Shown here: piece by piece, positions 966-28,301 of the stretch
How positions within the stretch are numbered: position 1 is the stretch's first letter
Layout of the letters: each line of letters starts with the position of its first letter
DNA from: Candidatus Berkelbacteria bacterium RIFCSPLOWO2_01_FULL_50_28
GTDB lineage: Bacteria > Patescibacteriota > UBA1384 > 2-12-FULL-50-11
Length of the DNA: 64,000 nt
Direction: 5' to 3'
Assembly (NCBI GenBank): GCA_001774395.1
Contig: MEZX01000002.1
Location: 96,753-160,752 of the forward strand
Notes under the pieces: model-generated
What the model was told of the DNA's origin: nothing
The model's database searches: none
What the model saw: only the letters and a program-made list of their open reading frames with translations
Translations under genes and position numbers: made by a program

Positions 966-3900
966 CCGTCGAGGGCTCTTGGTATTACTGGCGACCCTGA
1001 TTGCCGTTTCACCGTTAATGCTCTCTGTTGCTTTTACCACGCCCGTTAAGGCGGTCGCCAGTTCTGTATCGTGGACGGACGGCGCTAACGGCTCACCGGA
1101 GGATATGCTTGGAAACCCCAACTACTACCAGGTCGCCAGCTCTTTAACCACCCTTGGAGCAGTGCTCTCCACCCGCGACAAGCTAGTGATATCGCCGCAG
1201 GACATGAATTACATCAAAGACGGAAAAGTGGACGTGCGCACCACTGATTACCTGATCTACCTAGTAACACCTGTTGAACTGGGCGGCGCTGGATTCGACC
1301 ACATCAAAGCCGGGCGGCTACTTAAAAACTACGACAGCGAGGGCGTTGGCAAATACGACCGCGAGACACTGGCCGCGGTGGAAGAGGACCAGAGCTTTGT
1401 CTCAACCCATAACCGCGGCACGGCGGTTGATGTTACTCAAGTTGGCTCAATTACCTGCAAACTAATCGAAAAAAGACACGTCGGTGGCAATACTACAAAG
1501 TGGCAAGCGCCCCGTAACATCGAGGTTGCCTGGCAGTCAACGGCCGGCATCGCTCGTCATCCCACACCGAAAGGTCCCAGTTTGGTGGAGATTGCCGGCG
1601 GTCTTACCGCCCAGGGCTGGTTGCGGCTCCTTAACGATTCCGGACAGCTGGACGAGGTGGCGGACTTTGTTAAGGGGCTGGACTTCAACAGTATCGTTGC
1701 CTATGTAGGGGCAAACATTCTTATCAAGCACTACGGCGCTGGTGACGTGACTTCCGATCCGCTAGCCAACGGCTTAATCGCAACGATCGGCGCCTCGGTT
1801 CTGCAGAAATCTATTCCCGATCTGCCAGCCGGTTTTGGAATTGCCTCGCGCGACGACGACATCCGCGTGGCTATGGTTAAGGCGCGGCTTGAAGAAACAC
1901 TAAACTTGCCGCCCGGGTCGCTTCGTGGCTGGGGTTGGAACGAGCTACTTAAGAGCACCGGCAAGCGTAACCTCGAGGGAGCGTTAAGCCTGCCTGCCCT
2001 ATTTCTCGAATCGCACGATCTAGCCCAACTCAACTCCTCCGCCAAGAACAACGGGGCAGTTAAGATGCTGAAGCGCAACGACGACGCGTTTAATGTGCCG
2101 CGCGGCTCCTTAGAAAAGATTCGCGCCAACGACGAGGATGGCTTGAAGTTGGCCGGGGTAAATATCCTCGCCGATGCCTTGCGCCTAACCGACGTCCAGA
2201 AGAGCGAGTTGTTGAAGATTGCTCAGAATAAACCGGGGCATGTTGACCTAACGGCCGTGCCGCTCGACGACAAAATTACCCCGACAGATCTACAGCTACT
2301 CTTCTCCCCCAAAGACTCCGACCATCAAGAAGTAGCCGGTAAATTCAAACAGCTCGGTCTCCAGATGTTGCAAGAGGCGATCAAGAAAGCGACTCCCAAC
2401 CAGTATCTCGGCGTTACAACTGACCTACTGAATAAGTTGGCTTACGGACAGCAAGATATGTTGCTCGGCAAGGTCACCGACGATATCGGGGCCAAAAAGA
2501 TTGCTGCCGACTCTGGGATAAAGGTTGAAGATTCTAAGAAGATCACTAGCGGCAAAGATAGCCCCTTGGCCAGCCAGATCGCCAAGTACATTAACGACGA
2601 GTTTCGTCTCTCGGGCAACGGCGCGGTAAATGCCGAGGAAACCAACGGCGTTCTAAAAGGTAGCAACTTCAAGGTTTTCGAGCGCCTCGGCGGAGCGCAG
2701 ATCGACAAAGCGTTGGATTTCAACTCTGGTACCAGCTTCGAGATCATTAGCGGCAAGAAGGATCTTGGCGATGGCTTGAAAGAAGCCTTTGCTCGCTCGA
2801 TCGGCTCAATTGTGGGTATTGATCGTGACTACCCATTGGACTTGAACGGTAACTTACAGCGCAACTACGGCACAGCCATCATTGAGTCCCGACTCGGTTT
2901 AACGAAGGGTCGGCTGAGCAGTATGAGTAGTGAAGAGAAAGTAACGTTTTTTGGCGGCAACAAAGATTCCTGGCAGTATAGCGATGTGCGCCTCGGTCTA
3001 CCTGCCGGCAGCTCGCAAGCGTTCTTTGAAGGTAAAATCACCGCCGACCAGCTAGCCGACAAGGCGGCCAACAACAACATCAAAGAAATCGCCGTCGATC
3101 AAATTTGGAATTTTTTCGATACTTCCGGTAAGTACAAAGTTGGCGACAGCGACGCCAAGGAGATTATTGAAACATTTAGTGACTGGTCGGCGAAAGAGCC
3201 GGCAGACCGCGACAAAGCGATTGCTCTAGCGCTGAAGATCGCCGGACGAAGCTTCGACCAAAAAGCCTCCTTTGCGATTGACTTTGTACGTGGCATTTCC
3301 GACGGCGGCCAAGACGAACAGAATACTAAACGAGTGATCAAAGAGGGCGTTCGGTTACTTTTCGAGGCGATGGGGATTAACGAGAAGTTCGGAGGCTCTC
3401 AGTCGCCAGACAAAATGGCCGAACTTTTGCTGAAAACCTACCAAGACACTTCCTTTAATCCAGCCGGTTCGAGCGGTAACCCCGAGATCGGCGGAATTCC
3501 CCAAGGACGACTGGAAGATTTCATCAGTAAAGCCACCGGCATCCCGAAAGAGTTCATGCCTGATATACGGGCTTTTATCGGTGGCGATTACCGCTTAGCT
3601 ATCAACCACTGGTCTGGAGCGATGTGGACCGATTTTGCCAATAGGTTCCTGCCTGAAGACAACGTTCTTAAATACGAAGATATTCGCAACTCAGTTATTA
3701 TGGACAACCAGACGTTGATCGATCAGGAAGCGTTCCGCCTTTATACTGTTGCCCAGGAAGAGCTTGGCGCCACCTATAACCTAGAAAACTTCAACCTTCT
3801 CAGCTACGACCAGCAGCAAGAGTTCCGCGCCCAAGCGCGTAAGCAACTGATGCAGCGCTTTGACGCCGAAGCCCGTTACAAGATTTCTGATGCCTTTTTG

Positions 3901-12947: not shown

Positions 12948-13080
12948 TATAGTCGCTGGTAAGCGACAACCGCGACGTACCCTTGGGACTTTTCTCGTCG
13001 TGTATAGTCGCCGGTACGGCGACAACCGCGACGTTCCCTTGGGACTTCGTCCCGTCGTGTATAATTCGACTAGTCGCCTA
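12948..13080 (+). repeat. Tandem direct repeat of about 55-57 bp, two full units plus a partial third. Each unit starts TATAGT or TATAAT and carries TTGGGA. Candidate tandem promoter or structured-leader array upstream of the UbiA-like gene.
   Basis: Units at 12948-13002 and 13003-13059, with a partial unit from 13060. Hairpin GTCGC-TGGTAA-GCGAC in unit 1 versus GTCGCC-GGTAC-GGCGAC in unit 2 (compensatory change). The last unit supplies -35 TTGGGA (13039-13044) and -10 TATAAT (13060-13065), followed by RBS GGAGG and the ATG at 13099. Confidence 0.6.
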
Positions 13081-14306: not shown

Positions 14307-14388
14307 GGTGGGTTGGCAGAATGGTAATGCAGCGGTCTTGAAAACCGCCGGGCGTAAGCCCTTGTAGGTTCGAGCCCTACACCCACCG
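14307..14388 (+). tRNA. tRNA-Ser (anticodon TGA) with a long variable arm.
   Basis: Acceptor GGTGGGT/ACCCACC (7 bp). Anticodon stem GCGGT/ACCGC with loop CTTGAAA. Variable arm CGGGCGTAAGCCCTT. T-arm GTAGG-TTCGAGC-CCTAC. Discriminator G. Confidence 0.7.
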
Positions 14389-14509
14389 CACTTCGAGTCG
14401 CTGGGCTCCCTCAGTGTAAACTGAGGACAGGCGACCCGAACTACCCCGAGCGACCTGTCCTGAGCGGATTCGAAGGAAGTCGGGGGCGGTACATTACAGT
14501 CACATTTGC

Positions 14510-14530
14510 GCCCGTAGCTCAGTGGATACT
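14510..14530 (+). pseudogene. Exact 21-nt duplicate of the 5' end (acceptor plus D-arm) of the downstream tRNA (GCGCCCGTAGCTCAGTGGATA), a tRNA 5' fragment.
   Basis: Identical to 14599-14619, but the sequence that follows cannot form the rest of a cloverleaf. Confidence 0.6.
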
Positions 14531-14598
14531 CCCGAGTCATCCTTTGAGCTACTGGCACCAGCCAGTATTAGATGCCTACAGTTATGTATGTAGGCTTG

Positions 14599-14671
14599 GC
14601 GCCCGTAGCTCAGTGGATAGAGTATTTGCTTGCGGAGCAAAGGGTCGCTGGTTCGAGTCCAGCCGGGCGCG
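14599..14671 (+). tRNA. tRNA with anticodon GCG as read (would decode Arg CGC), 73 nt. Unusual for bacteria, which normally use ACG.
   Basis: Acceptor GCGCCCG/CGGGCGC. D-arm GCTC-AGTGGATA-GAGT. Anticodon stem TTTGC/GCAAA with loop TTGCGGA. T-arm GCTGG-TTCGAGT-CCAGC. Discriminator G. Confidence 0.65.
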
Positions 14672-14832
14672 CAGATACTAAAAGTCCGAACCGCATTTAT
14701 TCACTTTTCTCGAAGAAAATCGCTACTCTAAGCTTTTGGGAATCACGCAGATTAATAATCGCGTCGCACAATTAATTTTTTTGAACCTGTAATGGTTCGA
14801 TTCCGGTTAGGTCGTTGTACGGGAAAACACTA

Positions 14833-24728: not shown

Positions 24729-24831
24729 TTAACTTATTGTAGCCGACTAGCTGATAGCGACCAACAGGAAGCTTTCTGTCGCGTGCGACTGACTTTTGAG
24801 TGATAATGAGGTAAGATTTAGGTCGTTATCA

Positions 24832-24957
24832 GGAGAGGTCGCATAGCTCGGTTGATGTGAGGCCGCAGGCCGAAGACAACCGGGATGGAAACTTGGAGAG
24901 GTCGCATAGCTCGGTTGATTTTGAGCCAGAGGCGAGAAACAACCGGAGTACAAATCG
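24832..24957 (+). repeat. Two tandem 63-bp units, each beginning with an exact copy of the first 25 nt of the downstream tRNA-Ser (GGAGAGGTCGCATAGCTCGGTTGAT) followed by a diverged anticodon-arm-like sequence. These are tRNA 5'-half pseudo-copies.
   Basis: Unit starts at 24832, 24895 and 24958 (the real tRNA), an exact 63-nt periodicity. All three share ...AACCGG... downstream. The minus-strand ORFs with a repeated QPSYATSP are artefacts of this repeat. Confidence 0.7.
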
Positions 24958-25043
24958 GAGAGGTCGCATAGCTCGGTTGATTGCGCCGGTTTCGAAAACC
25001 GGTATACCGCAAGGTATCGTGGGTTCAAATCCCACCCTCTCCG
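24958..25043 (+). tRNA. tRNA-Ser (anticodon CGA).
   Basis: Acceptor GGAGAGG/CCTCTCC. Anticodon stem CCGGT/ACCGG with loop TTCGAAA. Long variable arm ATACCGCAAGGTATCG. T-arm GTGGG-TTCAAAT-CCCAC. Discriminator G. Confidence 0.75.
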
Positions 25044-25045
25044 CA

Positions 25046-25399
25046 ATGGATGTAGATAAATGCTACAGCGATTGGATTAAGTTGATCGCTGAGTCGAACG
25101 ACAGTGACGAGCTGGTCACCCACTTTAGAGAACATGTCGGTGATCACTTTCACCATCATGACAACGAAGGTGAATTCGGTTTTAAAATATGGCTGACAGG
25201 GGTGGTCAACTTCCTTCGTGTATTTGAGCAGAAATTTACGGAAATAGAAAAAGCCGAACTACTTTTCCAGCTCTGTGTTTTCTACAAAGAAAAAGGTAAG
25301 GGCCCTAAACCGTCGTTCGATATTGATGTTTTTATGGAGAATTTTGATAGCAAAATAAAAGATTATTATCTTAAACGTAAATCAGCTAACAGAGACTAA
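25046..25399 (+). CDS. Hypothetical His-rich small protein (117 aa) starting 3 nt after the tRNA. The track ORF from 24857 reads through the tRNA repeats.
   Basis: MDVDKCYSDW...HFREHVGDHFHHHD; no recognised domain. Confidence 0.45.
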   Translation: MDVDKCYSDWIKLIAESNDSDELVTHFREHVGDHFHHHDNEGEFGFKIWLTGVVNFLRVFEQKFTEIEKAELLFQLCVFYKEKGKGPKPSFDIDVFMENFDSKIKDYYLKRKSANRD

Positions 25400-26335: not shown

Positions 26336-26431
26336 GAGTGCTTCCTCGATTATTGTTGGCCAGCAACGCTTAGCTTACTTTTATCACAATAAGCCCTACA
26401 GAGACACCCTGCCAAGCTCCGTTCTCTGTTT

Positions 26432-26536
26432 AACGCAAAAAGCCGACTGCGAAGAAGCGGCTTTTTAACGCAAAAAGCCGATTGTGAAACAACGGTTTTT
26501 TGTGACGCAAAAAGCCGATCACGAGGACCGGCATTT
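26432..26536. repeat. Three tandem 35-bp hairpin-forming repeats (ACGCAAAAAGCCG-loop-CGGCTTTTT).
   Basis: Units at 26432-26466, 26467-26501 and 26502-26536. Unit 1 is the perfect hairpin AAAAAGCCG-ACTGCGAAGAAG-CGGCTTTTT. Confidence 0.6.
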
Positions 26537-27550: not shown

Positions 27551-27727
27551 TTCCTTAGTTCCTTAACGATTTCGAGTGCGCCCTTCCGGGCGTTTTACCA
27601 CCCGAAAGTTTCTGGGGCCACTTTACCAGATAAACCGAGAAATGTCAAGGGATTCGGGTGTAATTATTGACCACGGATAGTTTAGCTCTCGTATATATTA
27701 TAATATATGAGGGAGCTAGATCATGAG

Positions 27728-27756
27728 TGACCGAGAACACTGTATATGGTATAATT
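27728..27756 (+). promoter_or_regulatory. Strong sigma70-like promoter with an extended -10, driving the tRNA-Ser(GCT) locus.
   Basis: -35 GTGACC (27728-27733), 17-nt spacer, TGG-TATAAT (27751-27756). Confidence 0.55.
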
Positions 27757-27780
27757 CTTTAGATTCACCTGTGTGAAATG

Positions 27781-27860
27781 GAGAGGTCGCATAGTGGGCC
27801 GGAAGCGAGGGAACGCAGCTTTCGGCGGGAAATGAAAGATTTCCCCGGCGGCCACGTATG
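27781..27860 (+). pseudogene. tRNA-Ser 5'-half-like pseudo-copy. Its first 18 nt (GGAGAGGTCGCATAGTGG) are identical to the real tRNA 130 nt downstream, and it then diverges.
   Basis: Exact 18-nt match to 27911-27928. The rest keeps only fragmentary similarity (GCAGCT) and has no T-arm or 3' acceptor strand. Confidence 0.55.
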
Positions 27861-27910
27861 CCCAGTTTTTTGCTCGAGGACGATAGGCCGAGCTAGAATG
27901 TTGAAAACAT

Positions 27911-27997
27911 GGAGAGGTCGCATAGTGGCCGAGTGCAGCTCACTGCTAATGAGTTGAACCCGTAAGGGTTCCCAGGGTTCGAATCCCTGCCTCTCCG
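27911..27997 (+). tRNA. tRNA-Ser (anticodon GCT).
   Basis: Acceptor GGAGAGG/CCTCTCC. Anticodon loop CTGCTAA. Long variable arm. T-arm CAGGG-TTCGAAT-CCCTG. Discriminator G. Confidence 0.75.
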
Positions 27998-28061
27998 CCG
28001 TCGCCTCGCTGAAGCTCGGCTTTGGCGGACAAGTCCGCTAAGCTGGGCGTAAGCGGGACAA

Positions 28062-28301
28062 ATGAAATATGTATATCTACTGAAGTGCTCTGACAAGCGC
28101 ACGTATATCGGCTGTACCGGCGATTTGAAAAGTCGACTCGACAGGCACATGAAGGGGCATGTGCCCGCAACTAAACCAAGACGGCCAGTGACTTTGGTTG
28201 GATATTTTGCCCTTGTAAGCGAGGTAAGGGCGTTCGAGTTTGGGAAGTATCTAAAGACTGGTTCCGGCCGGGCGTTCTTGAGCAAACGAGTTCTGGGTTG
28301 A
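28062..28301 (+). CDS. GIY-YIG nuclease-domain protein (small stand-alone, YhbQ/UPF0213-like).
   Basis: YVYLLKCSDKRTYIGCTGDLKSRLDRH matches the GIY-(x10)-YIG...R...H/N core. Confidence 0.75.
   Translation: MKYVYLLKCSDKRTYIGCTGDLKSRLDRHMKGHVPATKPRRPVTLVGYFALVSEVRAFEFGKYLKTGSGRAFLSKRVLG

Follow-up and report, generated by a model that had tools for sequence, protein, structure and literature searches.

Partial copies of tRNA genes are usually read as marks left by integrases at the 3′ end of the gene. Elements that carry a tyrosine recombinase and integrate into tRNA genes reportedly leave partial duplications of this kind (attL/attR; Williams 2002). A different arrangement is said to have been described by Egan and Landy in 1978 at E. 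coli tyrT (rtT RNA), where a 178-bp unit is repeated 3.14 times, each unit ending with the last 19 nt of tRNA-Tyr; such units arise by unequal recombination and are co-transcribed with the tRNA. Free-standing nuclease genes occur at exchange boundaries, and SegB, a free-standing GIY-YIG homing endonuclease of phage T4, reportedly lies in a tRNA gene cluster (work attributed to Brok-Volchanskaya et al. in 2008). Classical attenuators, for their part, operate through competing 1:2 and 2:3 pairings. In designed riboswitch leaders, cleavage by RNase P is regulated through sequestration of the tRNA 5′ or acceptor region (PMC8925977).

The window analysed here, a 64-kb stretch of DNA (64,000 nucleotides), comes from a groundwater Candidatus Berkelbacteria, a member of the candidate phyla radiation (CPR). 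Upstream of three of its four tRNA genes lie exact copies, 18–26 nt long, of the tRNA's own 5′ end, which we call S1; no 5′ copy was found for the fourth gene, tRNA-Ser(TGA) (14307–14389). One of these loci, at tRNA-Ser(CGA), is a tandem array of the tyrT type, with head-to-tail, mutually homologous units that each consist of a terminal tRNA segment plus a spacer; tRNA-Arg(GCG) and tRNA-Ser(GCT) have one unit apiece. Of the two features expected of an integrase att duplication, a 3′ repeat is absent at these loci, and no recombinase or element body was found in the gaps or the flanking ORFs scanned. In the literature searched we found neither a description of tRNA 5′-end self-copies in tRNA leaders nor a natural tRNA leader with a copy of its tRNA's own 5′ end.

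tRNA 5′-end copies in the window

All three loci are laid out as promoter, S1, spacer and intact tRNA. Every S1 in the window starts at tRNA position +1 and ends within the D-loop, with gaps of 36–113 nt. The most elaborate is the tRNA-Ser(CGA) array:

24789–24817 (+): weak promoter-like site CTGACT-17-TAAGAT, inferred from sequence, 14 nt 5′ of S1a
24832–24856 (+): S1a, exact 25-nt match to tRNA-Ser(CGA) nt 1–25
24857–24894 (+): spacer a, decayed tRNA body (fold z −2.0)
24895–24920 (+): S1b, exact 26-nt match to tRNA-Ser(CGA) nt 1–26
24921–24956 (+): spacer b, between S1b and tRNA-Ser(CGA) (fold z −2.8)
24957–25044 (+): intact tRNA-Ser(CGA) (ARAGORN and Rfam, 54.5 bits)

The promoter-like site scores 8/12, which is under the scan threshold and explains why it is missing from the promoter scan list. 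Tandem Repeats Finder (TRF) reports a period of 63 with 2.4 copies and 83% matches. The two upstream units are 81% identical over 52 nt, and CAACCGG, kept in both, matches the 3′ strand of the tRNA anticodon stem. In spacer a, CAACCGGG pairs with CTCGGTTG of S1a in a hairpin that contains an inner hairpin, GGCC-gca-GGCC, while AAACAACCG in spacer b (24937–24945) is complementary both to S1b (24912–24920) and to the true tRNA-Ser(CGA) (24974–24982). A fourth, older unit at 24762–24831 is not claimed, its alignment being weak; candidate promoters within the 38-nt spacers (TTGAT(G/T)-17-(G/A)ACAAC) were poor matches, and the promoter scan was empty there.

The tRNA-Ser(GCT) locus has the longest leader:

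27727–27755 (+): promoter GTGACC-17-TATAAT with TG extended −10, predicted by promoter scan to drive the Ser(GCT) leader
27780–27797 (+): S1, exact match to tRNA-Ser(GCT) nt 1–18 (20 nt from 27778 counting two leader bases)
27798–27910 (+): structured leader and proximal leader, from folding and comparison with relatives
27798–27826 (+): hairpin H1
27827–27845 (+): hairpin H2
27852–27861 (+): antisense-like segment CCACGTATGC
27866–27871 (+): T-run
27911–27999 (+): intact tRNA-Ser(GCT) (ARAGORN, Rfam)

S1 begins 25 nt past the promoter. The T-run lies 4 nt beyond a possible helix between S1 and the antisense-like segment, and falls in a hairpin loop of the consensus fold.

The third locus is that of tRNA-Arg(GCG):

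14508–14528 (+): S1, exact 21-nt match to tRNA-Arg(GCG) nt 1–21
14539–14560 (+): segment A, antisense copy of the tRNA-Arg 5′ end, from complementarity
14561–14598 (+): conserved part of the leader, from comparison with relatives
14599–14672 (+): intact tRNA-Arg(GCG) (ARAGORN, Rfam)

The start-to-start offset is 91 nt. A leader hairpin, CTGGC..GCCAG, starts at 14552 within segment A and is completed in 14561–14598, where a second one, GCCTAC..GTAGGC, also lies.

The first-pass annotation of the window had reported such copies at three tRNA loci, and all three are present. Both exact copies it placed at 24832 and 24895 were found, as was the AACCGG it saw in the diverged segments; its tRNA-Ser(CGA) start of 24958 moves to 24957 with ARAGORN and Rfam, and its strict 63-nt periodicity gives way to start-to-start periods of 63 and then 62 nt. 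The 18-nt copy just after a strong promoter at tRNA-Ser(GCT) holds, starting at 27780 with an offset of 131 rather than at 27781 and 130, and so does the 21-nt copy upstream of the GCG-anticodon tRNA, at 14508 with a 70-nt gap rather than at 14510 with 68. Its remark that the copies are unlike integrase duplications of tRNA 3′ ends agrees with repeats that run from +1 into the D-loop.

Close direct repeats of at least 16 nt occur at six loci in the 64-kb window, three of them these tRNA 5′-end copies. Eight independent assemblies from four pipelines (JGI, ENA, NCBI GCA_001776175.1 and Logan) show no difference over those parts of the array that they cover, so the repeats are not the assembly artefact that the annotation had allowed for. 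ARAGORN called only four intact tRNA genes in the window and no pseudo-unit, and Rfam at E ≤ 10 gave no tRNA match on the pseudo-units, which by these tools are not tRNA pseudogenes in the sense of full decayed copies. Split or intron-containing tRNA genes are ruled out by the complete canonical tRNA 3′ of each copy (Rfam 54–69 bits). At the gathering threshold, Rfam found the four tRNAs only, with no T-box, riboswitch or other leader family in the window, and at E ≤ 10 no relevant RNA family at the three loci; a terminator scan of the same loci returned no G+C-rich hairpin followed by a T-run, as an attenuator with an intrinsic terminator would have.

A CRISPR-like mini-array was rejected, since the repeat is a tRNA 5′ end, the third ‘repeat’ is the tRNA itself and the two Ser(CGA) spacers share homology with one another as well as with the tRNA body. 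Mobile multi-copy spacers were likewise discarded, each spacer being single-copy in the window and in the loci compared, and so was a phage origin, there being no match in a phage collection and a cellular gene content. The flanking ORFs scanned encode a secretion ATPase (T2SSE), a methyltransferase or proteins without Pfam domains; none contains a recombinase domain.

Distribution and conservation among relatives

The annotation had named absence from relatives as grounds for dismissing the copies, but they recur in other Berkelbacteria species, with 64–71% identity in the neighbouring T2SSE/PilB-type secretion ATPase, and in other CPR lineages. In a survey of loci biased toward Ser and Arg tRNAs, exact 5′-terminal copies were found upstream of seven of 27 tRNAs in Berkelbacteria relatives (plus two decayed) and of nine of 189 tRNAs in other loci, and never downstream of any of these tRNAs. 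All loci with such copies belong to CPR-named or probably CPR MAGs. A metagenome scan for close relatives yielded only generic PilB/GspE-type T2SSE ATPase homologues (35–45% identity), and paired 15-mer matches in other genomes proved to be complete tRNA-Ser genes in tandem rather than partial copies.

Six of eight species have the Arg S1; they fall in both clades of the T2SSE tree and on either side of the deepest split sampled, and the S1 edge is stable at position 20/21 in all six leaders. The Arg copy is missing in L210 and L213. The Ser(CGA) copy is missing in five species and the Ser(GCT) copy in L209, L210 and L215, while S1 shows partial decay in L209 (Ser CGA) and L214 (Ser GCT). The leaders are dispensable, with a patchy presence and repeated losses. 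By eye, −10 boxes can be read 9–22 nt before S1 in the relatives.

In every species S1 agrees with the tRNA of that same species, also where tRNAs differ between species. The first 13–26 nt are identical to the tRNA and the bases beyond S1 are at chance identity, with only 3–9 of the next 20 positions matching. At Ser(GCT), S1 mirrors six tRNA differences between the window and L212, and in L216 GCGCCTG occurs both in the Arg tRNA and in its S1.

The spacers are homologous among species with 61–76% T2SSE identity. The Ser(GCT) leaders of the window, L212 and L214 align with 81% mean column identity, the window's leader being 79–85% identical to that of L214. The stretch from S1 through the spacer and tRNA-Arg (14504–14672) is 84.6% identical to L216 over 175 nt, and most of S1 with the Ser(GCT) leader and tRNA is 79% identical to L214 over 211 nt, whereas the T2SSE gene reaches only 66–68% at the DNA level. 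The leaders have changed less than the coding DNA around them, although such similarity between distant species could reflect horizontal spread instead of constraint. Leader stems are conserved and loops variable, with compensatory changes at five pairs across three leader hairpins.

Some loci differ from those in the window. L112 and L022 carry near full-length decayed tRNA copies, unlike the window units; the Arg duplication of L211 takes in some 45 nt of promoter, about 80% identical; and L098 has two identical 52-nt units, which suggest a young array and ongoing amplification.

Antisense segments and competing folds

Leaders frequently contain an antisense segment, A, that can pair either with S1 or with the true tRNA 5′ end (S2). 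It is present at two of the three window loci. At tRNA-Arg it is 83% complementary to S1 (14510–14527) and 82% complementary to the true 5′ end (14597–14618); the duplex has a z-score of −3.7, and none of 500 shuffles was equally good. Duplexes between S1 and the spacer beat shuffled spacers in many leaders, with z down to −4.1. Not all leaders are built alike: by the same shuffled-spacer test the pairing fell short of significance at Ser(CGA) and Ser(GCT) in the window and in the Arg leaders of L211 and L212. In L209 and L214, S1 and its pairing partner change together (A5-T versus G5-C).

Folding predicts that an alternative structure, in which S1 forms part of the acceptor stem while A pairs with S2, competes with the native fold. 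It is predicted to be more stable than the native fold by 6.8 kcal/mol for Arg and 7.3 kcal/mol for Ser(GCT), and about equal to it for Ser(CGA). These competing folds are a thermodynamic prediction only and an automatic consequence of the identity of S1 and S2. The compensatory changes and the S1/S2 identity could themselves come from quasi-palindrome template switching or break repair, without selection.

A GIY-YIG nuclease gene family at tRNA genes

The window genome has a small nuclease gene beside one of the three tRNA genes:

28062–28301 (+): 79-aa GIY-YIG nuclease ORF (PF01541), 62 nt downstream of tRNA-Ser(GCT)

This ORF belongs to a family that in other CPR genomes sits between S1 and the tRNA. 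In five of them (L126, L127, L115, L110 and L022) the order is S1, hairpins, a 79-aa GIY-YIG ORF and the intact tRNA, and S1 ends at position 13/14 or 25, the same positions as in the ORF-less leaders. Among 17 GIY-YIG ORFs, 14 lie within about 120 nt of a same-strand tRNA or tmRNA. In the window, no nuclease gene lies between fragment and tRNA; its GIY-YIG ORF is of the type placed after a tRNA and its trailer. There is no ORF inside the three window leaders or inside the leaders of the eight Berkelbacteria relatives, and no GIY-YIG ORF in the loci of those relatives. A GIY-YIG gene inside a Berkelbacteria leader was sought through seven homologous proteins; the one context retrieved (L217/L218) consists of tRNA-Ser, trailer and GIY-YIG gene, with no S1. 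We infer the link between the window ORF and the three window leaders.

Origin and possible role of the copies

The spacers hold decayed pieces of tRNA body, so each structure started out when the promoter-proximal part of a tRNA gene was duplicated; of the upstream copy nothing recognisable has been kept except S1. Since the GIY-YIG loci share the layout and the S1 end positions, S1 can be read as the displaced original 5′ end. A cassette or tandem copy would have inserted within the 5′ portion of the gene, bringing a new 5′ segment with it and leaving S1 displaced. The window copies would be derivatives without the ORF, their loci having lost it or never had one, and the double unit at Ser(CGA) may reflect either a repeat of this event or unequal repair. 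Lying between promoter and tRNA, the copies should be transcribed as a leader, to judge by promoter position.

With somewhat less than even confidence, we favour the view that such a 5′ end, which stayed behind when the 5′ part of the gene was duplicated or received an insertion, now belongs to an ORF-less transcribed leader that probably affects the folding or processing of the pre-tRNA. The least certain steps concern how it would work. With S1 paired to A, the tRNA would fold normally; were A to capture S2, S1 could occupy the acceptor-stem position and the precursor would be trapped, so that the leader would act in cis on folding and on RNase P processing. If S1 and S2 had to pair with one and the same partner, their lasting identity would be accounted for. 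A bolder form, which we consider unlikely, makes the leader a natural self-mimic switch between two competing precursor folds, by which CPR bacteria tune the maturation of individual tRNAs, either as they fold or at the RNase P step, and in which pairing with a shared partner forces S1 and tRNA to co-evolve.

The first-pass annotation had offered three explanations and chosen none, and was partly borne out. Its decayed tandem duplications find support in the anticodon-arm remnants of the spacers as regards a tRNA-derived origin, but simple decay does not fit the first 13–26 nt being identical to their own tRNA; its co-transcribed leader is what the position behind a promoter leads one to expect. 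Its third option was that the copies are relics of recombination aimed at tRNA 5′ ends. The annotation noted neither the antisense segment, complementary to copy and true 5′ end alike, nor the connection with GIY-YIG cassettes elsewhere in the CPR.

A strong rival, and a real possibility, keeps the same origin and removes the function: the copies would be selfish or neutral scars of GIY-YIG cassettes or tandem duplications, with S1 homogenised by mutation and recombination. Homogenisation could possibly proceed through repeated repair of nuclease-induced breaks or re-homing, regenerating S1 from the resident tRNA; through unequal sister-strand repair; or through template switching at quasi-palindromes, where A would be copied from the constrained tRNA and S1 from A. 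The spacer similarity between species would then reflect horizontal spread. Such scars are what one might expect from GIY-YIG ORFs lying between S1 and tRNA in five CPR genomes, with S1 ends as in the ORF-less leaders, and from the tight clustering of the family with tRNA genes; the patchy distribution with repeated losses, the young array in L098 and the existence of S1/A/S2 inverted repeats able to support template switching point the same way, and the predicted trap fold seems harmful rather than useful. However, direct repeats of 18–26 bp at 60–130 bp are deletion-prone and their deletion restores a normal gene, yet the Arg leader is still there in six of eight species. Identity islands of 13–14 nt are short for recombination-based conversion, the fixed S1 edge at 20/21 in all six Arg leaders and the conservation of stems over loops are not readily expected of scars, and the nuclease gene was not found near the leaders of the eight relatives.

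Independent tandem duplications by replication slippage at highly transcribed tRNA genes, young, decaying and involving neither mobile element nor function, seem improbable. A duplication with one end inside the tRNA and the other beyond it automatically yields a 5′ fragment upstream or a 3′ fragment downstream, which is the asymmetry observed, and the promoter included in the L211 duplication and the identical L098 units fit. The step from 100% identity in S1 to chance identity at its edge does not fit, and spacers shared at 61–76% T2SSE identity mean that the duplication events are old. Nor can slippage derive the antisense segments, because no 20-nt stretch of a tRNA is complementary to that tRNA's 5′ end.

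Scars of the attL/attR type, from tRNA-targeting integrase elements since deleted, are very unlikely: partial direct repeats of a tRNA are the classic mark of integration, but here the 5′ rather than the 3′ end is repeated, the gaps are short, no flanking ORF scanned has a recombinase domain, the two Ser(CGA) spacers are homologues of one another and of the tRNA, and no recombinase-bearing element lies between S1 and tRNA in nine Berkelbacteria loci or 120 other loci. Chance similarity or a collapsed or expanded tandem repeat is practically negligible against exact 18–26 nt matches, half of the close direct repeats in 64 kb falling at tRNA 5′ ends, eight agreeing assemblies and homologous structures in other species.

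Comparison with known systems

The copies form a mirror-image, 5′-end class of partial tRNA duplication that is widespread in CPR, lies in what should be a transcribed leader and matches its own tRNA over long divergence. In CPR genomes they will mislead tRNA annotation, the prediction of att sites and repeat finders, and as a simple sequence signature they can be searched for in all genomes. If the nuclease link is true, a selfish gene would here have found a novel means of occupying an essential RNA gene while leaving it intact, sitting between the tRNA promoter and the restored tRNA. If our favoured reading of a leader acting in cis is true, this would be the first natural leader to control tRNA maturation by mimicry of its own tRNA's 5′ end.

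As at tyrT, head-to-tail units made of a terminal tRNA segment and a spacer stand beside an intact gene; unlike tyrT, where the 3′ end is repeated downstream, it is the 5′ end that is repeated, upstream in the leader, and S1 follows the sequence of its tRNA from species to species and is accompanied by an antisense segment. With attL/attR the copies would share insertion into a tRNA gene, a carried copy that restores the displaced segment and a direct repeat that stays behind, but they are its mirror image, a 5′ segment with gaps of only 36–113 nt and no recombinase or element body, and the cargo in other CPR genomes is a 79-aa GIY-YIG gene. Like SegB, that small gene lies in or next to tRNA gene regions and its spread appears tied to tRNA gene sequence; whereas SegB lies between phage tRNA genes with no partial duplication, the CPR ORF in L110, L115, L126 and L127 separates a displaced 5′ fragment from a restored cellular tRNA. 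Finally, as in designed RNase P riboswitches and attenuators, a segment complementary to the tRNA 5′ end could block the acceptor stem and an upstream competitor could relieve the block, although those riboswitches are synthetic and attenuators control mRNAs, unlike the present leaders.

Copies of tRNA 5′ ends in the window

ARAGORN and Rfam place four intact tRNA genes in the window. Searches with each of these genes by short-word BLAST, together with a repeat finder, identified exact copies of the tRNA 5′ end (termed S1) in the leaders of three of them, and no 5′ copy for tRNA-Ser(TGA).

tRNA genes (ARAGORN and Rfam) and 5′ copies (BLAST and repeat finder) in the window
14307–14389, tRNA-Ser(TGA)
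14508–14528, 21-nt copy of the Arg(GCG) 5′ end, start-to-start offset 91
14599–14672, tRNA-Arg(GCG)
24832–24856 and 24895–24920, copies (25 and 26 nt) of the Ser(CGA) 5′ end
24957–25044, tRNA-Ser(CGA)
27780–27797, 18-nt copy (20 nt including two leader bases) of the Ser(GCT) 5′ end, start-to-start offset 131
27911–27999, tRNA-Ser(GCT)

The first-pass annotation had proposed 5′-half copies at these three tRNAs; the copies are real, with its coordinates wrong by 1–2 nt. The strict 63-nt periodicity that it had described at Ser(CGA) does not hold, as the starts of the two copies are 63 nt apart and those of the later copy and the tRNA 62 nt. Between the two Ser(CGA) units, identity is 81% across 52 nt, and each has retained the 3′ strand of the anticodon stem, CAACCGG. 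tRNA models, the check it had suggested, recover the four intact genes, while the truncated units receive no tRNA score in Rfam even at E ≤ 10. Across the 64 kb, close direct repeats of at least 16 nt are confined to six loci, three of which are the tRNA copies.

Flanking genes encode a secretion/pilus ATPase (T2SSE, PilB/GspE type), pilin-like proteins, a solute-binding protein and a methyltransferase. The T2SSE protein occurs in 20 contigs, of which eight (from JGI, ENA, NCBI (GCA_001776175.1) and Logan) were retrieved; these are 99.9–100% identical to the window and agree with its three-copy structure over whatever part of it they span, which refutes the assembly artefact considered at first pass. 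The genome is that of a groundwater member of Candidatus Berkelbacteria, in the candidate phyla radiation (CPR), and the nearest other species have T2SSE identities of 64–71% (aligned matrix) or 59–68% (BLASTP).

Several other features were observed in the window. An open frame (24857–25399) runs from the first pseudo-unit through tRNA-Ser(CGA) into an ORF for which gene callers of different assemblies give 117, 126 or 180 aa; the real start of the 117-aa version is likely to be 25046, 2 nt past the tRNA. Three tandem 35–37-nt units (..AACGCAAAAAGCCGACTGCG..) at 26426–26532, intergenic after the methyltransferase gene, look like repeated hairpins, and a 56-nt unit (×2.1, 88% matches) at 12948–13063 overlaps the start of a UbiA-like ORF. 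The tRNA-Ser(TGA) trailer (14390–14451, ACTTCGAGTCGCT..CCCTCAGTGTAAACTGAGG..) forms a nested hairpin. A blastn match that includes the tRNA 3′ end (14364–14451) is 80% identical to L209, a Berkelbacteria relative whose counterpart sits behind Ser(CGA) instead. Identity reaches 94% over the leading 36 nt of the trailer, which looks like a shared module.

Conservation among Berkelbacteria

The syntenic locus was compared in eight other Berkelbacteria (L209–L216), where the same tRNAs are found. The first-pass annotation had pointed to related genomes as a check on conservation, and the copies do recur there in other species; they are old. The Arg copy is present in the window, L211, L212 and L214–L216 as an exact match of 20–21 nt, 77–103 nt upstream, to the carrier's own tRNA 5′ end (in L212 that of Arg(CCG)). 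L210 and L213 have no Arg copy, and their Ser(TGA)–Arg gaps are just 3 and 16 nt. The Arg spacers are homologous across carriers, with CAAG..CGTCCTTGTCCCCT common to L212, L215 and L216, and ACTGGCAC.AGCCAGTATTA.A.TGCCTAC..GTAGGCTT common to the window and L216. A neighbour-joining tree of T2SSE has two clades, and the six carriers are spread over both, so the Arg structure is older than the sampled group and has undergone at least two losses.

The Ser(GCT) leader can be aligned among the window, L212 and L214 (mean column identity 81%) and is absent in L209, L210 and L215. At Ser(CGA), an exact copy of 13 nt is seen in L214 and a decayed one in L209 (GGAAGGGTCGCAT), and five species have none at the syntenic loci. 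The copies lie downstream of promoters, with a −10 box 9–10 nt before the Ser(CGA) copies of L209 and L214.

The copies also lie within conserved, structured leaders. Sensitive blastn of window positions 12–31 kb against the eight relatives aligned S1, spacer and tRNA-Arg with L216 at 84.6% identity across 175 nt, most of S1, the Ser(GCT) leader and its tRNA with L214 (79% over 211 nt; 85% over 80 nt for the spacer alone) and the T2SSE gene at 66–68%; the remaining intergenic DNA gave no alignment. RNAalifold predicts three hairpins for the three Ser(GCT) leaders, with five pairs preserved by changes on both sides, and L216 has exactly the two Arg-leader hairpin stems of the window, with different loops.

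Each copy keeps its identity to its own tRNA. Between the window and L212, the tRNA-Ser(GCT) genes have different bases at six of their first 18 positions (GGAGAGGTCGCATAGTGG versus GGAAGGGTGCCAGAGCGG), and each S1 matches its own tRNA despite homologous leaders. Similarly, GCGCCTG of the L216 tRNA-Arg recurs in its S1, and the L211 S1 mirrors three tRNA-Arg differences. The L211 duplication takes in approximately 45 nt of promoter at approximately 80% identity, and may therefore be an independent event. Where S1 ends, identity falls abruptly from 100% to chance level (3–9 of the next 20 nt, ungapped) rather than declining gradually. Exceptions are L209 Ser(CGA) and L214 Ser(GCT), where S1 has partly decayed, in L214 within its acceptor part.

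Antisense segments and predicted competing folds

The Arg leader contains an antisense segment (A, 14539–14560) with 83% complementarity to S1 (14510–14527) and 82% to the true 5′ end (14597–14618). It is not a decayed piece of tRNA, because no 20-nt stretch of a tRNA is complementary to its 5′ end in this way. At Ser(CGA), AAACAACCG (24937–24945) is complementary to the second copy and to the tRNA. When S1:spacer duplex energies of 16 leaders were compared with 500 shuffled spacers each, seven reached z ≤ −2 (including window Arg, −3.7; L212 Ser(GCT), −3.4; and L098, from Daviesbacteria, −4.1), and pairing was non-significant for the Ser(CGA) and Ser(GCT) leaders of the window, L211 and L212 Arg. 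In other CPR leaders, S1 and its complement fold as a 10–12-bp hairpin (z −3.1 to −5.1), and L209 and L214 keep the S1:partner helix by compensatory change (A5-T versus G5-C).

Whole-precursor folding predicts two competing states, with native and alternative energies of −68.6 and −75.4 kcal/mol for Arg, −87.3 and −94.6 for Ser(GCT), and −82.0 and −81.7 to −82.5 for Ser(CGA), values that exclude tertiary contacts and are in part a consequence of S1–tRNA identity. In the predicted alternative fold, the tRNA 3′ strand would form the acceptor stem with S1; A would pair with the true 5′ end of Arg, and CCACGUAUGC with part of the D-arm of the true tRNA-Ser(GCT).

Distribution beyond Berkelbacteria

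All tRNAs of the fetched loci (numbered with the prefix L) were surveyed.

Exact terminal fragments of at least 12 nt within 300 nt of a tRNA, other tRNAs masked
Window: 4 tRNAs; 3 5′-terminal upstream, 0 3′-terminal downstream
Berkelbacteria relatives: 27 tRNAs; 7 upstream, 6 downstream
Loci found with the 15-mer GGAGAGGTCGCATAG: 189 tRNAs; 9 upstream, 10 downstream
Distant T2SSE loci: 13 tRNAs; 0 upstream, 0 downstream

No 5′-terminal copy was found downstream of a tRNA in the survey. Duplication across a gene boundary with the tRNA kept intact necessarily gives this 5′-upstream/3′-downstream asymmetry, which supports a duplication origin and alone points to nothing more unusual. The nine 5′ cases among the 15-mer loci come from Levyibacteriota, Daviesbacteria, Gracilibacteria, Moranbacteria and other MAGs, some probably mislabelled. 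In L098, two identical 52-nt units (1589–1692), each containing an S1 of 13 nt and 9 nt of antisense sequence, precede tRNA-Arg; this is a young array, so new arrays continue to form.

The 3′-terminal copies, seen in trailers of L209, L211 (3742–3885, 10020–10170), L212, L215 and L216, are the mirror image of the 5′ phenomenon. Two distinct tRNA-Ser genes in L211 share a near-identical trailer of approximately 122 nt, behind which each gene has 20 nt of its own 3′ end repeated (CCCTTCC versus CCTCTCC); in L212, the 3′-end copy and an antisense copy form a perfect 13-bp hairpin.

Four MAGs titled ‘uncultured Gammaproteobacteria’ (L010, L018, L048 and L049) show CPR-like features, among them a 1.0-Mb contig for L048, and their labels may be wrong; L010, L018 and L048 have tRNA-Ser leaders with S1, and the L049 GIY-YIG ORF is 64% identical to the Berkelbacteria one. 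ARAGORN also reported tRNA-Ser with anticodon ACT in L012 (1640–1724), L072 (Levyibacteriota, 3350–3437) and L018 (106–194), in tandem with tRNA-Ser(TGA) in the first two; this unusual anticodon may mark decaying or altered tRNA-Ser copies.

Association with GIY-YIG nucleases

In L115 (Moranbacteria), nt 1–25 of tRNA-Ser are followed by a hairpin, a GIY-YIG ORF and an intact tRNA-Ser. L126 and L127 (S1 of 13 nt), L110 (tRNA-Asn, 13 nt) and L022 (a longer decayed copy) are arranged in the same way. An HMM built from the cassette ORFs found 17 GIY-YIG ORFs in the fetched loci, 14 of them on the same strand as a tRNA or tmRNA and within approximately 120 nt of it. S1 ends at position 13/14 or 25 in these cassettes; among ORF-less leaders, seven end at 13/14 (L010, L018, L048, L078, L128, L209 and L214) and window Ser(CGA) at 25/26. 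The window's own GIY-YIG ORF (28062–28301, 79 aa) lies downstream of tRNA-Ser(GCT), past a 62-nt trailer, an order shared with L049, L073, L074 and L218. The HMM found no GIY-YIG ORF at the loci of the eight relatives, and no Berkelbacteria leader, in the window or those loci, contains an ORF. A nuclease link for the window leaders would thus stand on their common architecture with the other CPR cassettes.

The tRNA-Ser(GCT) trailer (28000 onwards) is 95% identical over 39 nt to a tRNA-Ser trailer of a different CPR lineage (L060), where an fpg-like gene follows and the GIY-YIG ORF is absent. The motif CTTCGGCGGAC..GTCCGC recurs behind tRNA-Ser in L073 and L218, and the L049 tRNA-Ser has a related trailer.

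Proposed origin and possible function

We infer, with nearly an even chance of being right in full, that a tandem copy or nuclease cassette would enter the 5′ part of a tRNA gene, displacing the original 5′ end as S1, and that S1, A and the true 5′ end would then compete at the RNA level. The main rival, somewhat less likely, has the same origin and no function: S1 would stay identical through break repair, re-homing or quasi-palindrome template switching, with horizontal spread accounting for the similarity among leaders. Repeated loss of leaders and their non-uniform architecture count against function, yet the Arg leader is kept in six of eight species although close direct repeats are deletion-prone. 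Deletion between the repeats would yield a normal gene, so this retention counts for function, as do the S1 edge fixed at position 20/21 and the conserved stems. An integrase scar, a CRISPR-like array and a split tRNA were each rejected on their defining features.

Neither 5′-end self-copies in tRNA leaders nor a GIY-YIG gene flanked by a displaced 5′ fragment and a restored tRNA turned up in the literature searched. Among terminal tRNA repeats, tyrT repeats and att sites are established cases that involve the 3′ end, whereas those described here copy the 5′ end and, if the RNA switch is real, could be categorically new.
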